Shown here: piece by piece, positions 40,592 through 46,500 of the stretch
How the letters are laid out: each line of letters begins with the position of its first letter
Numbering within the stretch: the stretch's first letter is position 1
Source: a phage
Reading direction: 5' to 3' (one strand)
Sequence record: PZ674596.1
Length of the DNA: 64,000 bases
Made by a program: the position numbers

Positions 40592-43500
40592 TAATAGCGG
40601 AAACGGAATGGGGAACTCATTCCGTTTTTGTTTATCGCCTTAGACGGCAAAAGTGCTGTCGCCCACCTGCGCTTGCGCATACCAGGCCATAAGCTCCGTG
40701 GTTCCTGGTTCTCCTTCCGCTGGAGCCCAGTGCGCATAGTCATCGGCAGCCACGGGTTGATAGCCACCGTGTTTTACTTCAAAAATTATGCCACCGGTAT
40801 CCAGCGACAGCACGGCATGCCAGGTTCCTGCGGCCATCTCCAGCACCGTACAGGTTTCCCCCAATATCGCCCGATGGGTGACGGTACCCCGATCGTCAAA
40901 ATTCAGCACCACGAAACGACCCCTTAATGGCAACAGTAGCTCGAAGGTGTGAGGGTGTCGGTGCGGGCGCACGTAGGTCCCAGGTCATATTCCTTCCGGC
41001 GTCCGGCATTTTACCGCCAGACAGCTCGGGATTCGTGATATCACCGTTCTTGCAGAATACGGTTTGGAAAAATTGTTATTCGTCTTGAAAACGGCGTCAT
41101 CGTTCGTGCGAGCGGCATTAAGCATAAATATCTGGATGAGATCTGGAACAACAAAGAGAAGTACCGTGGTCGTATTGTCGAGGTTCATTGTCACGAGAAA
41201 ACACCGGACGGCAGCTTACGCCACCCACGACTGAAATGGCCGCGTTGCTTACGCGATACAGAAGATCGAATCGGAGATAAAGAATGATGCTCGGCTGGAT
41301 GATTGCATTTTTAGCAGTTGGTTTTTTCATAGGTATTGTGGTGATGTCCAGTTGCATCAATGACTACATTAAAAGCGGTGTTATAGAAAGACGCGGTCGT
41401 ATTTATCGCATTGTAGAAATAACCAACACCCTGAAGGAGATTAAGGATGATCGTATTAAGTAAACGGGAGAAGGAAACGCTTCATGAAATCAGTAAGTGG
41501 CCGGAGTTCCCTGAGTACTGGAAGCCTAAAACGCGAGCTAAGTTAGAGCGTTTAGGGTTGGTTGCAAACGTTTCTGAAACGTGGTGTTCGGCCAACTACC
41601 AGTTAACTGATAAAGGGAAAGTATTGCTACAGCAATTAGTAGAATCAGGAGCGTTAAAATGATTCCATACATCTCATTAGCTTTTATGGGTGGCTTCCTT
41701 ATCGGCTTCGGCATCTGTCGTGATTTAATTAAGCAGGAACTTAAAACCAAAACACTGTGCATCGGAAAGCGTGTGTATCGGGTAGTTCATGAAACAAAGG
41801 TGAAAAAATGAGCAATTTAACTTCTTGGGAATGGTGGTTGGCCACCTATTTCTTAGCGGCCGGAGTCGCATTCGCCTTTTACGTAGGTCAGTTAGTCGTA
41901 AAACTGTTGCTGATTAAATTTGCTAGTCATAAACGTATCGATGATGGTCTGTGGCGTCTTGGCACCCTGGTGGAAACTCGCTACGGGCAACTTAAGGAGA
42001 ACGAAACCATTACTATCCAAGCGAAACGATTCACTGCCACCATTACAAGAACACCTAGTCGTAGAGTGGCCTTGATCAAAAAAGTCACAACCGAATAAAA
42101 ACATATTGATAAGTATTTACTTACTTATCTTTTGTGTATAAGATGACTTTGTTTTCGTTGAGACGCGACTGTTTGAACTTAAATACAAGTGCAAACGAAG
42201 AAGTCTATCTGGCAGTAGCCTAATAAGCCAAACACCAGCGAGGTCAGTTTCCAGCCTCGTTACCGAAATGGGACACACTGAGCGAGTGTGATTGCAGAAC
42301 GCAGGAGGGAACATTCATGTTCCCTCCGATGAAGTAACAGAATGGGCGGTTGGTATATTTTCAACTCCATATGACTCCCGGATTCTTAGCCACTGACCGC
42401 CCATCCTGTTACGTCATTTTGTTCAATTATGTCGTTTATACTGGGTTAAAAAGCGGCGACGTAGCCCGGCTGGTATGGTTAGCCAGCACATAACGTTGAG
42501 GCCATTACATTTTTATCAATTCTAAGGTTCTATTCACAGAGATACCGGCGAGCGTTGATATGTAACATGTTGGGCAAACATTCAATCGGAGTAGTGGCCT
42601 CAACGTTGTGAAGACAGGATTGTTGTGTAGGTTTAACCACTGTTGCCATTGGTGCCTGTTTTCACAACAAATGATTCCATACATCACATTGTATAAATTA
42701 CAAAGTAGGTGCTGTCCTCAGAAACATCATCTACTTAAAGATTTTGCCTTCTACTATTGAGCGAAGTCGAAAGCGTCTGGCACTAACGAAAAGTGCAAGT
42801 AGCGGTGCGTTTCCTGGCAGAAACTAAACCGTCGCGATTGGCACTGTTGAGTAATAAATACTGGCAGTGCTGAATTGATGGTGTAGCTCAGCGGTAGAGC
42901 AGTTGGCTGTTAACCAACTGGTCGGTGGTTCGAATCCACCCACCATCGCCAATTTAGGGGAGTTAGTCCGTAGGGGCAGCGGGGTAGACTGTAAATCTAC
43001 TGTCATGGCGACTCGGGTGGTTCGACTCCATCACTCCCCACCAAATTGCCGGTTTAGCTCAGTTGGTAGAGCGCCTGCCTTGTAAGCAGGATGTCAGCGG
43101 TTCGAGTCCGTTAACCGGCACCAACACAACAGGTAAGTGCATTGGGCGAATCGGCGATACTGACCCACAAGCCCGTAAATCGATAGAGTCAGACCAGTGC
43201 TCTTACCGTTGTGAGGAAGTGCAGCTCTTTGAGGCAACCAGAAGATAAGCATCTGGCTTCACAACACAACGATAAGATCATTACGGTTAATCGTCGTTCA
43301 TGTGCACAATGACTGGTCGAAAGGTAGTGATCTTACCGTTGTGGTGGATTCGCAGACTGATGCGATAGCTTTCTTGGATGTTAGGGAAATGCGGCCGCAA
43401 ATCTTCCCTTTCGCGAGCGGTGATCGTCCGTAGTCCTAATTGGCTGCACCGTATGCCGGAGATTCAGTACCGGCCACCACAACGGCCGGAGAGTAGGGAG

Positions 43501-46500
43501 CATGGTGCTCAAGCGGTCTTGAAAACCGTCCCATTGCGCAAGCGATGATGGTTCGATTCCATTACTCTCCGCCAGACACAGCGTTGAGCGGTTTGGCCTT
43601 TTAATCACCCAGATTAAGACTCCGCTAACATAAACCAGACCGCTCAACGCTGTGATAGACAATTACGGCAGACGTTCTTAACCATAGCTTGCTAACATCC
43701 TAGCAACACTTTTTTTTCAGCGCAAAATTCAAAGGGGCTTCGGCCCCTTTTTTGCAACTGAAAGAGTCAAGTCTACGAACTTTGTAGGAAGAAATAATGA
43801 CCAGCAAAGAGAACACACCACTAAAAGTCACCCCTGAACACATTGAACAACTCATTCAAAGTGAACATTATTTCACTGCATATGATGCCAGCCACGGGGA
43901 TAACTTCATCTCTGTTTACAATTCAAAAACAGATATCGACAAAGGTCATGAGTCGTTAAAACTCTTAACGTTCTGCGTTATGGTTCTCAAAAATGGATAT
44001 ACCGTAACGGGAAAATCTGCGTGCGTAAGACCAGAAATCTTCAACTTTGATGTTGGTCGCGAGTACGCTCGAAAAGATGCTATCGATCAAATCTGGCCCC
44101 TGGAAGGCTATCTCCTGAAGCAAAAGTGGCATGAGGCAAAGCAATGACGATCACTATCTACGGACGAGATAACTGCTCATACTGCAAACGTGCAGTCGAG
44201 CTGGCGAAGCAACTAAAGGGACATGGCTACGGTGATTATGAGTACATCGACATCACCACTGCCGGTATCGACAAGGAAAAACTTAGTGAAATTGTTGGTA
44301 AACCGGTAGAGACTATCCCCCAGGTGCTGATCGATGGCCAGCCGATTGGCGGATACACAGAGATGGCATCTTTCGTAAGTTTCTTATAAGTAAAAGCCAC
44401 ATCTTTGTACATATAGTACATATAACAAAAAAGGCCCATATGGGCCTTTTTCATAACTTCTAGCTAACCACTACAGTGGCTTAAAGACCACTTCACCCTT
44501 GCGTTCAGCTTCAGCTTTAGCAGTCATGAATCGTTTGATCATTTCGACTTTGCTAGCATGAATAGTTTTAAAATCAATCTTCCCTTTGTTTTGGGTAGTG
44601 TTGTGTTCGTATCGCATAGGAAGCTCCGTCATTTAAATAAGTTAGGCCACGCTCTTGTGTAAATCTCTTCACATATCTCTTGTATGTGGCCATCAGTTCT
44701 TCGCGTTCTGCCGCAAAGAATAAAATCTGTATGCCTTCATTGTCGGCAACTTTGAGCATTAAGTCAACTAAAGTACCGTAAAGGTATTGAAGTTCACCTA
44801 AAGTAAGATTAAAAGACCCTTCGGGTTTGGCAAATACGTTAATTGGCTCTTCCGCTCCAAGAGCGACATTCTGGAGCTGTTCTTGCTGCCTGTCAAGTTG
44901 AATCATGTCCACAAAACTAACGACAGATACACACAACCCATAAACATCAGCACCTAACATATTATGCATAGTTTCTGCGGCAACAGGATCTAAAGAAGGA
45001 GGGCAAAAGACTAAACGGTATCTAGCCTTACGAGCTTCATTGCCAGAGAAAACAAAGTCTATATCTAAATATGACAGATCACCCGGCAATGAAGCCAAAC
45101 CAGGTGTAACCAACTTATGCAAGTGCATCTGTCTCGAATCCCTCTTTATTAGTATAAGTTGTCTTATTGTACCCTACCAAACGTTTATATGCATTGTTAT
45201 GTATTATTTTGATTTTCAATATTACCTCCTAGAACGAAGGGTAGATTTCAAAAAACGCATCCTCAATGATTCCATACCTACTATGTATGGAATCATTACT
45301 GAAAATGAGTTACTTTTACTCTTGATCCTATAAGAATCTATGCCTAATATACTGTTTACTTATACAGTGAATCGGCGTAACTCGGTGATTGTCATATGAA
45401 AAATAGCTTTGACAGAGCACGCGCTGCGGAGAACACCTCAAAAGAGGCGATTGAGTATCTCGAAAGAGCATCTCAAATGCAGGCCGTTATGATCTCCCAG
45501 GTCAGCAATGACATGAGATTCTCGGACGCATTCATGTTATTCACTCGCTTATCTCTGCTGATAACCAGACGTCGGCCAGAGATCGCTGTTCATTGTATTT
45601 TGATACATGTTTTGCCGCACATTGCCGATGTAAAAGTAAGTGACATTAATAGGTTCATGGTGAACCAACTGGTCAACCCACTAATACTGGATGGCAAAAT
45701 TGTTATGGGCCGCCGCGTTTTCTCTCTGATGAAGCAGTTCCTTAGCTGGTGCGCCTTCCAGGGGATGATAGACGTGTCACCGTTAAACGATATGTCACTA
45801 AACAAAGTTGCCGGTGGCGCAAAGCCCACACCTCGCGAGCGGAAGCTGACCGACGCAGAGGTATGGGTGTTCTGGAATATATGGGACTACTTCAATGTGT
45901 GCGCTGGTACAAAATGGGCGGCCAGGCTGTGTCTTGTATCCGCAAGACGACCTGACGAAGTACTGCGGGCTAAAAAAAGTGAGTTCAATCTTAAGCGTGG
46001 GGTTTGGAATCAAGGCAAGAGGAACAAATCTGCCCGTGAGCATTCGCTGCCTTTAAGCACATTAATGCGCACATGTATTGAAGAGTTGTTCGAATACGGT
46101 AAAGGCAGCCAGTGGCTCGTGCCTTCGAATAAAAAAATCGGGAAAGACCTTCCTATGTCTAAAGTGGCAATAGCCCAGGCATTACGTCGTATTCTGGAAC
46201 GACCAGAACTGATGGAGCTTGAGCCATTTACACCCCGAGACTTGCGCCGTACTGCGCGTAGTTACTTCCCAGCATTAGGCATAAGCCAGGAGGTATCACG
46301 CAAAATCATGAACCACAGTCTTGAGGGGATAGATCGAGTCTACGACCGGCACGATTATATGGACGAGATGCGAGACGCCTTAGAAAGTTTCTCGACGTAC
46401 ATCGCATCAATCGTAGAGCAACCGGATTTAGACGAAATTGACCACAAATTCAAGGGAGATCGTCTATCAACAGAGCTTATTCGTGTAAATTTTTCATAGA

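Follow-up and report, generated by a model that had tools for sequence, protein, structure and literature searches.

The tRNA genes and their carrier

The window analyzed here is the whole of a 64,000-nucleotide (nt) stretch of phage DNA from sequence record PZ674596.1, and the feature under study is a cluster of four transfer RNA (tRNA) genes at positions 42877-43574, together with the structured noncoding DNA in which these genes are set. The window is an SSU5-type phage-plasmid that is plasmid-borne in Escherichia coli. Portal, scaffold, tail, tape-measure and fibre genes occupy its first 26 kb and replication functions the remainder (PHROGs), and with a G+C content of 46.5% the element is AT-richer than its host. 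Over the compared 4 kb the window was 98.7% identical to phage Cyrano, and the tRNA cluster was 100% identical in plasmid CP025888.1 and in a RefSeq plasmid.

ARAGORN called exactly four tRNA genes in the window, all on the plus strand, at the places where an earlier note, made from the sequence alone, had put them: tRNA-Asn (GUU) at 42877-42951, tRNA-Tyr (GUA, class II) at 42957-43043, tRNA-Thr (UGU) at 43048-43123 and tRNA-Ser (UGA, class II) at 43488-43574. The CCA end that the note had described was found encoded in all four. The Rfam general tRNA model RF00005 (gathering score 29 bits) scored tRNA-Asn at 75.5 bits, tRNA-Tyr at 39.7 bits and tRNA-Thr at 74.9 bits, and gave no call for tRNA-Ser in the window; at relaxed thresholds, the best Rfam match of the latter was tRNA-Sec (RF01852, 46.6 bits, E 7e-8, gathering score 47). 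In the GenBank record of phage D6, the amino acid of the Ser tRNA was left unnamed by tRNAscan-SE.

The D arm of tRNA-Ser is compact and atypical (4-bp stem, 5-nt loop, A8). The gene carries serine features, namely G1-C72, G2-C71, A3-U70, G73, a long variable arm and UGA in a 7-nt loop, and its anticodon loop is that of E. coli K-12 serT. Covariation was analyzed in eight distinct variants from related elements: 99.5% of cells were paired over 26 pairs, with four compensatory pairs, of which the acceptor stem has two and the D stem and the variable arm have one each, and 0 of 500 shuffles was as good. The cloverleaf, on the folding of which the earlier note had let its tRNA calls depend, is therefore kept in all eight variants. 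All four also carry PGAP (NCBI pipeline) annotations on a 100%-identical plasmid. These four tRNAs are real genes under structural constraint; taken by itself, the set is ordinary, and public records already annotate it.

The stretch between tRNA-Thr and tRNA-Ser

Non-tRNA sequence makes up 364 of the 698 bases in the cluster interval (52%), all of the large gap lying between tRNA-Thr and tRNA-Ser. This gap folded better than its shuffles (z = -2.7) and was built of recurring modules with ACAAC.../...GUUGUG boundary arms, two kinds of which alternate. The A-type modules are hairpins of 57-129 nt with outer stems of 15-20 bp, in which the stem ends are conserved, the interiors are variable and the mid-stem changes in sequence while complementarity is kept. 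Each is directly followed by a compact closed element. The gap thus holds A2 (43126-43212; an 18-bp outer stem with a bulged A and a variable interior) with B2 (43208-43265; two small hairpins within a GTTGTG.../...CACAAC stem), and A3 (43266-43342; an 18-bp outer stem) with the element termed D (43339-43482), all on the plus strand, as are the modules described below. Rather than being a spacer, the 364-bp stretch encodes two units, each of a hairpin and a closed RNA.

The same layout was found outside the gap. Upstream of the tRNAs lies a unit of A1 (42490-42609; 19-bp outer stem ATAACGTTGAGGCC.../...GGCCTCAACGTTGT) and B1 (42605-42668), a short closed element read from the sequence, with a 14-bp closing stem GTTGTGAAGACAGG/CCTGTTTTCACAAC. 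A scan for xCAAC...GTTGx-closed hairpins added a lone A-type hairpin, A0, with a 20-bp outer stem at 42334-42412 in the leader, which is free of open reading frames (ORFs), and an A-like hairpin with a 20-bp stem, 95% complementary, follows tRNA-Ser at 43577-43654. When the whole window was scanned, its four strong A-type hairpins all fell within the array. Because A1 with B1, the lone A0 and the hairpin past tRNA-Ser extend it in both directions, the ORF-free DNA from about 42.3 to 43.75 kb is regarded as one RNA array.

The array ends in two hairpins recognized by sequence and fold. A weak terminator-like hairpin, TTGCTA-ACATCC-TAGCAA followed by T8, lies at 43690-43717, and a strong intrinsic terminator, GGGGC-TTCG-GCCCC with T6, lies at 43734-43753, within a feature delimited as 43731-43753. 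The latter stands 160 nt past tRNA-Ser and bears out the strong terminator that had been noted after the cluster; a simple terminator scan missed it, and it rests on sequence reading and fold. The fold of 43575-43770 gave z = -8.8.

The modules recur in other elements. The A2 arms have homologs, with swapped interiors, in D6, P7, P1 and two further loci (L004 and L009), and B2 is conserved in P1, P7, D6 and Klebsiella plasmids. Some A-type interiors hold T-arm-like hairpins, such as GGGUUCGAAUCCC, and canonical-looking T arms (e.g., AGGGUUCGAAUCCCU) were seen in the first module after tRNA-Thr of D6, P1 and a P1-like plasmid (L002, L011 and L008) and in L014, L024, L041 and L134. These hairpins suggest that the A-type modules may also descend from tRNA genes.

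A family of tRNA-like elements

The D-type element (43339-43482) is closed by a stem between 43339-43346 and 43475-43482 and contains hairpin 1 (43350-43365, loop AGACUGAU) and hairpin 2 (43455-43474, loop AGAUUCAGUA), with an 89-nt variable centre; ACUGA in loop 1 pairs with UCAGU in loop 2. Its near-invariant scaffold is UUGUGGUG-AAU-GCGC[AGGCUGAU]GCGC-(variable, 5 to ~140 nt)-GCCGG[AGAUCAGCA]CCGGC-CACCACAA. A pattern for the 3' half matched at least 120 viral contigs, as did an independent pattern for the 5' half (at least 120 viral contigs). The full scaffold was also present in ten species-representative genomes, from Escherichia, Pseudocitrobacter, Kluyvera, Superficieibacter, Pseudescherichia, Serratia, Rouxiella, Pantoea and Aeromonas. 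Other genome matches to the 3' pattern, outside Enterobacterales or in other phyla, lacked the 5' half and were discarded as chance matches.

Covariation was analyzed in two separately collected, non-overlapping sets with 123 distinct scaffolds in all, some scaffold positions being fixed by the collecting patterns. In the 3'-anchored set (65 distinct scaffolds), 97.8% of positions were paired, and 36 compensatory cells were counted compared to 5.5 +/- 2.1 (0 of 500 shuffles). In the 5'-anchored set (58 distinct), there were 11 compensatory pairs compared to 2.9 +/- 1.2 (0 of 500 shuffles), all five pairs of the 3' hairpin covaried, and 95.6% were paired, a percentage inflated by a parser that picked the 3' half partly by pairing. 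The pair counts carry four helices, the loop-loop contact among them, with compensatory pairs in every helix; when the partners were slid out of register, pairing was 52% or less in both sets.

Because the outermost (eighth) closing pair is weak, the closing stem in effect counts 7 bp, and the stems of 7, 4 and 5 bp have the sizes of the acceptor, D and T stems of a tRNA. The 3' hairpin directly adjoins the closing stem, just as the T arm of a tRNA adjoins its acceptor stem, and the variable insert takes the position of the anticodon arm. With its 7-bp closing stem, 4-bp and 5-bp hairpins and loop contact, the element has a cloverleaf-like topology. Its loops are AGRCUGAU and AGAUCAGYA, and no canonical T-loop or D-loop sequence was found in it. 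No match to RF00005, the transfer-messenger RNA (tmRNA) models or any other Rfam 15 family was obtained in 43124-43487, even at E<=10, or for the D-type element at 12 other loci at permissive thresholds.

The elements are oriented as RNAs. All tRNAs within 1.2 kb of D-type copies were co-oriented with them (68/68), as were all the CI-type repressor genes upstream of such copies (36/36), which belong to two unrelated families. G.U pairs outnumbered A.C pairs by 26:12, the fold of the A region was more stable on the plus strand in 72 of 85 cases, and an A-type hairpin abutted the D-type element in about 70 of 85 distinct cases. The data demonstrate that the stretch between tRNA-Thr and tRNA-Ser holds conserved, strand-specific and covarying RNA structures.

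Occurrence in other temperate phages

The family is carried by enterobacterial temperate phages, including P1 and Shiga toxin (Stx) phages, and 92 of the first 120 D-type loci had no tRNA nearby. In mEp460 and in a Stx2a phage, a unit of A and D lies in the pL leader, where the order is the cI stop, a terminator, operators, about 290 nt, the A hairpin, the D element, an intrinsic terminator 12 nt on and the first early-left gene. Other copies follow a Q-like gene on its 3' side or precede holin-like genes by about 200 nt. In lambdoid phages (e.g., mEp460, L133, at 3444-3705) and many IMG/VR loci, a G/U-rich conserved GCUGUGUGUAGUCUUUGGCGG-like stretch runs from the 3' side of the D-type element into the intrinsic terminator; it could be a separate, terminator-ended small RNA (sRNA) released by processing at the tRNA-like element.

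In P1, the A, B and D modules underlie two predicted genes of the other strand, plp (annotated as "putative lipoprotein") and upl; the modules fill the interval at 1575-2144 of P1 (L011, AF234173), and the same was seen in P1-like matches (H115-H118). These two genes are probably not protein-coding. Knock-downs of P1 plp and upl by CRISPR interference (CRISPRi) identified both as non-essential (PMC10695390).

Exchange of tRNA cassettes among relatives

The array of the window has the order Asn-Tyr-Thr-[364]-Ser. That of Cyrano, its near-identical relative, is Asn-Thr-[8]-Ser, with genes within 8 nt of each other and neither the Tyr cassette of about 92 nt nor the 364-bp gap. Further SSU5-type plasmids carried Asn-Tyr-Thr with gaps of 224 or 320 nt, and a Klebsiella relative carried Asn-[147]-Ser. 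The P1-family phages D6 and P7 carried Asn-Thr-[446-465]-Ser (465 in D6), followed by tciA/B and a CAU tRNA, and their Thr-to-Ser stretch was about 89% identical to that of the window. In P1 and P7, the tRNAs are annotated within the C1-repressed ban operon. The tRNA species that recurred across arrays were Asn (30), Thr-UGU (29), Ser-UGA (21), CAU (19), Arg-UCU (17) and Tyr (11), the CAU tRNA of the sibling arrays being annotated as Ile2 in P1.

Anticodons have changed as well. The Arg(UCU) gene of plasmid NZ_OZ501609.1 (L004, 689-764) is the tRNA-Thr(UGU) of the window except for G35C (75/76 identical). By sequence, this single-base change would switch an ACA reader to a nominal AGA reader, which carries U20 and A73. 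A different Arg(UCU), in the P1-like plasmid NZ_OR257475.1 (L008, 499-575) and at two similar viral loci, has the acceptor and T arms of tRNA-Asn; its 3' 32 nt are identical to those of tRNA-Asn, and only the D and anticodon arms differ. This Asn-derived kind accounted for 3 of 15 distinct Arg-UCU genes, and the shared arms indicate arm swapping or remoulding within arrays. The comparison demonstrates that tRNA cassettes are common to SSU5-type and P1-family phage-plasmids and have been gained, lost and given new anticodons among close relatives.

Codon usage

The earlier note had considered the tRNAs as possible codon-usage supplements and proposed a codon comparison with candidate hosts. This was performed by calling ORFs in the same way in the element (47 ORFs) and in a 150-kb sample of E. 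coli K-12 (116 ORFs), in which the G+C fraction at third codon positions was 0.47 and 0.55, respectively. ACA, read by tRNA-Thr(UGU), occurred at 17.6 per 1000 codons in the element and 8.5 in K-12 (2.08-fold, rank 5 of 61). UCA, read by tRNA-Ser(UGA), occurred at 15.5 and 7.1 (2.2-fold, rank 4 of 61), and UCU, which is also decoded by a modified UGA anticodon, at 17.1 and 8.2 (2.08-fold, rank 6 of 61). The codons decoded by the Arg-UCU and CAU tRNAs of sibling arrays were likewise enriched: AGA at 5.4 and 2.4 per 1000 (2.26-fold, rank 2 of 61) and AUA at 7.2 and 4.8 (1.49-fold, rank 11 of 61). Asn codons taken together stood at 48.1 and 39.9 per 1000 (1.2-fold) and Tyr codons at 29.1 in both (1.0-fold). 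Codon supplementation is therefore supported as a good explanation for the Thr and Ser tRNAs and a poor one for Asn and Tyr, and the proposal holds for half of the set. The further suggestion that A-ending codons are over-represented in the late genes was not borne out: the relative synonymous codon usage of ACA and UCA was no higher in the structural block (1-26 kb) than in the rest of the element.

Other features of the window

A conserved 16-nt site, AATGATTCCATACATC, lies at 42670-42685 on the plus strand, about 190 nt upstream of tRNA-Asn; its repeats surfaced in a search for antisense targets of the Thr-Ser stretch, which found none above chance within the window. Allowing up to three mismatches, the window holds five copies compared to 0.66 expected (41658, 42670, 45265-45297 and 51313). 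The site forms a perfect palindrome at 45265-45297, between the divergent gene 44574-45128 on the minus strand and a tyrosine recombinase gene (45396). Single exact copies lie where a small ORF begins (41659), in the leader of the tRNA array and, on the opposite strand, within the DNA polymerase gene. The copy upstream of tRNA-Asn was kept in every SSU5-type relative examined, Klebsiella included, and was not present in the P1 family. From this distribution, we infer that the site at 42670 is a candidate regulatory element resembling an operator half-site, and AATGATTCCATACATC is likely the binding site of a regulator encoded by the element. A protein with a helix-turn-helix (HTH) is encoded at 46494-46910.

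A second palindrome, GATAAGTA-TTTAC-TTACTTATC, lies at 42109-42130, directly past the stop of the ORF at 41808-42098, where the ORF-free array begins. It is possibly an operator or a terminator-like element, and no promoter consensus was detected near it.

A CTX-M extended-spectrum beta-lactamase (ESBL; 626.6 bits, cut-off 570) and a transposase of the IS1380 family (ISEcp1-like, 329.6 bits) were identified at 38201-40594 (and 36910-38019). The DNA ligase gene that adjoins this insertion is a shortened ORF of 369 amino acids, compared to an intact gene of 1323 nt in Cyrano. The phage-plasmid is an ESBL carrier, and since it carries CTX-M, whatever affects the fitness of the element is clinically relevant. 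Just 3' of the recombinase and repressor module, a large protein with CobT and VWA domains (PF06213, PF11775) is encoded at 47443-49551; the name given to it in Cyrano, dimethylbenzimidazole phosphoribosyltransferase, looks like a transfer from weak similarity.

Interpretation and alternatives

As a whole, the locus is probably best explained as a set of real tRNAs that top up decoding, joined to a co-processed array of tRNA-like RNAs, on an SSU5-type phage-plasmid. The main job of the tRNAs would be to supplement codons used about twice as often as in the host, ACA by Thr-UGU and UCA/UCU by Ser-UGA, and sibling arrays would add Arg-UCU for AGA and the CAU tRNA for AUA. The array would be transcribed as one RNA ending at the double terminator. 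RNase P may cut it at the tRNAs and at the tRNA-like D and B bodies, as the shape of the D-type element and its position directly 5' of tRNA-Ser suggest, and the long A hairpins may serve as entry sites for RNase III or RNase E. The tRNA-like RNAs so released would be stabilized by their tRNA shape and would have the variable insert as their working part. Co-processing of the D-type RNA with the tRNAs is our best guess.

Several points weigh against this explanation. A promoter scan found no sigma-70 consensus upstream of the array. The host codon figures come from mechanical ORF calls on a single 150-kb stretch of K-12, the most enriched codon of all, AAG (2.29-fold), is without a matching element tRNA, and the Tyr codons are not enriched and the Asn codons hardly so. 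The sequences of the D-type family are related and the scaffold is very conserved, which leaves few independent compensatory events, and the pairing percentage of the second set is inflated. NCCA-like 3' tails on the D-type RNAs are enriched but inconsistent (39/74). In P1, knocking down trnT, plp, upl, tciABC and trnI by CRISPRi left plaquing unaffected on the laboratory host (PMC10695390), so any benefit of the tRNAs must be conditional, whichever explanation is right.

The earlier note had also raised the possibility that the tRNAs relate to a recombination site, given a tyrosine recombinase 1.8 kb downstream. The recombinase is indeed there (gene start 45396, PF00589 match), and tRNA genes are the targets of many integrases; that the cluster is or contains an attachment site of this enzyme is nevertheless hardly credible. 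Identity between the element tRNAs and the K-12 isoacceptors is 64-80% (tRNA-Thr and thrU, 80%), no segment of the cluster is near-identical to a host tRNA gene, and the exact copy of a host tRNA 3' portion that an attP would have was not found. Chromosomal matches were generic (about 80% identity over 64-107 nt, covering 13% or less). The recombinase gene was on a plasmid at 254 of 254 places in 252 complete E. coli genomes, with no chromosomal copy and no integrated element among them. Moreover, P1-family elements without this recombinase carry the same tRNA cassettes, and an operator-like palindrome adjoins the recombinase gene instead. An integron attC-like site was considered for the modules as well, since ACAAC...GTTGT resembles RYYYAAC/GTTRRRY and the stem has a bulged base; it was set aside because the modules occur in P1-family and lambdoid phages without the recombinase, their orientation is RNA-like and the loop-loop contact covaries. 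A different use of the tRNAs themselves would be counter-defence, in which the element's own Asn, Tyr, Thr and Ser tRNAs stand in for host tRNAs that tRNA-targeting immunity or toxins (anticodon nucleases, PARIS, retron effectors, colicin E5-type nucleases or toxSAS) cleave or modify, and codon bias is secondary. Codon usage leaves Tyr and Asn unexplained; both tRNAs are targets of colicin E5, and tRNA-Tyr is also the target of a retron effector. Counter-defence would also suit the turnover of cassettes between near-identical relatives, tRNA bodies that differ from those of the host (64-80% identity) and could escape stem recognition, and the non-essential outcome of the P1 knock-downs in a defence-poor laboratory host, and phage isoacceptors have been reported to overcome PARIS and retron immunity (bioRxiv 10.1101/2024.07.05.602228). 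However, all four anticodon loops are identical to those of the host, which leaves no escape from anticodon nucleases at the level of the loop; in the Thr tRNA, all of the acceptor-stem determinants that have been reported for FaRel2 are intact; and of the six tRNA species that recur, four decode precisely the enriched rare A-ending codons. As the leading account, counter-defence is unlikely, but it stays in contention as a partial explanation, for Tyr and Asn above all, and can coexist with codon supplementation.

The modules between the tRNAs admit other explanations too. They might be selfish palindromic DNA, similar to miniature inverted-repeat transposable elements, or decayed tRNA genes, and not functional RNAs. 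Inverted repeats (ACAAC.../...GTTGT) bound each module; modules are swapped, duplicated or missing among relatives, with Cyrano lacking them; some A-type interiors hold T-arm-like hairpins; and the P1 region is non-essential. Against this origin, which is quite improbable, stand the strict orientation relative to tRNAs and CI genes, the asymmetries in G.U/A.C pairs and fold energy that favour the plus strand, a covarying loop-loop contact that a DNA palindrome does not need, and a scaffold that stays near-invariant in Escherichia, Klebsiella, Serratia, Pantoea and Aeromonas while its centre is hypervariable. A role as regulators, either in cis through put/nut-like leader antitermination or read-through, or as sponges or mimics of GcvB through CACAACA and GUUGUG, is also improbable. 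Antitermination would fit the stand-alone copies in pL leaders, about 350-390 nt past cI and with an intrinsic terminator within about 12 nt, and those 3' of Q-like genes and upstream of holin-like genes, but HK022, the reference phage for put RNAs at this genomic position, is without the scaffold, and a hypervariable insert is unexpected of a polymerase-binding RNA. CACAACA is the published target consensus of GcvB R1 (PMC4104026); two exact 10-nt antisense matches (43122-43131 and 43261-43270) were found, and two of the five plus-strand CACAACA heptamers of the window fall within 370 nt, compared to 0.03 expected. Against this, the R1 duplex energy is not exceptional (34% of random window segments are as good), the motifs are mostly sequestered in stems, and AgvB (RF02702) gave no match.

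Returning to the array of tRNAs and tRNA-like RNAs, we tentatively suggest, as one possibility, that the hairpin and tRNA-like units (A and D) are an undescribed and widespread class of temperate-phage RNA in Enterobacterales and Aeromonas, a tRNA-shaped handle for a hypervariable cargo that acts as regulator or decoy. If so, the handle, with its stems of 7, 4 and 5 bp and its Watson-Crick elbow, would let the tRNA-processing enzymes of the host excise and stabilize the cargo, as a natural "tRNA scaffold", and the cargo, evolving fast, would serve as a regulator or decoy in the conflicts of phages with hosts or with other phages. Such units would then be used both in the tRNA arrays of phage-plasmids, including those under the mis-annotated plp and upl of P1, and in the pL and pR' leaders of lambdoid and Stx phages. 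If the RNAs are indeed stable, tRNA-like and variable in cargo, they would add a new layer of phage regulation or counter-defence and would be a natural precedent for tRNA-scaffolded RNA expression. What the analysis adds is an unannotated RNA family in P1, P7 and Stx2 phages at regulatory positions, namely past cI, before lysis genes and in tRNA operons.

Comparison with known systems

The D-type family is probably undescribed, since it had no Rfam 15 match, the known candidates differ from it and open-access literature, searched by scaffold strings and by keywords, contained nothing describing it. The mention of SSU5 in the FaRel2 paper concerns an alarmone hydrolase and not the tRNAs. Two named RNAs were also compared and rejected: isrK was excluded as the identity of the RNA between tRNA-Thr and tRNA-Ser, and the put antiterminator RNA was set aside after the HK022 genome gave no match, even to relaxed scaffold halves.

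The closest RNA in outline is the C4 antisense RNA of P1 and P7 (RF01695, clan CL00128), with the CI RNA of P4. These are phage-encoded, have a closing stem around two hairpins and an ACCA-like 3' end, and lie in the immunity or leader regions of temperate enterobacterial phages; C4 RNA is processed by RNase P. Unlike the D-type element, C4 has a 17-bp closing stem, no insert between its hairpins and loops that pair with mRNA. The C4, c4-2 and c4-a1b1 covariance models gave no match at the D-type element in the window and the 12 loci, and genuine C4 and isrK RNAs elsewhere in one of these loci were readily detected by Rfam. At one locus (L017), a C4 copy scoring 80.7 bits lies about 2.4 kb from a D-type copy.

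The tRNA-like domain of tmRNA and YrlA also have an acceptor-like stem on a T-arm-like hairpin, a D-arm analogue that touches this hairpin and a large insert at the anticodon position. YrlA is a Y-RNA-like RNA. The D-type elbow differs in consisting of 4-6 Watson-Crick pairs, and there was no tmRNA match; a weak YrlA match lies over tRNA-Tyr and tRNA-Thr and not over the D-type element.

AgvB, AsxR and the Pas sRNAs resemble the family in setting: they come from moron or leader regions of lambdoid prophages that are not translated and that lie close to tRNAs, TerB and lysis genes, and the CACAACA GcvB-target motif of AgvB recurs here too. They are, however, Hfq-associated sRNAs of 51-84 nt with their own terminator, whereas the D-type element is a closed scaffold without one, and the Rfam models of AgvB (RF02702) and AsxR gave no match in the elements studied here. 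The Pas sRNAs (2026 preprint), about 84 nt long, terminator-ended and of another architecture, were set apart by their description, and any flanking sRNAs past D-type copies could be of their kind.

In the tRNA clusters of T4-type phages, tRNAs lie a few nt apart and are interleaved with stable, structured non-tRNA RNAs (species 1 and 2) in one processed transcript; T4 itself is virulent and has eight tRNAs. The likeness is one of organization, and the RNAs described here differ in having a defined, tRNA-like pseudoknotted scaffold and in occurring away from tRNAs as well.

The nearest system overall is the set of tRNA genes of P1, P7 and D6 (trnA-Asn, trnT-Thr and trnI in the ban operon). The backbone of the window is SSU5-type and not P1-type; the window has an extra Tyr cassette, is without tciABC, Ile2 and ban downstream and without C1 operators, and has its own 16-nt site upstream. 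Nevertheless, the Asn, Thr and Ser genes are the same cassettes in the same order and orientation, the Ser tRNA is almost invariant, and the modules that follow tRNA-Thr and the phage-plasmid carrier are shared. The arrays illustrate cleanly how tRNA cassettes move between two unrelated families of phage-plasmids, with anticodons rewritten on existing tRNA bodies.

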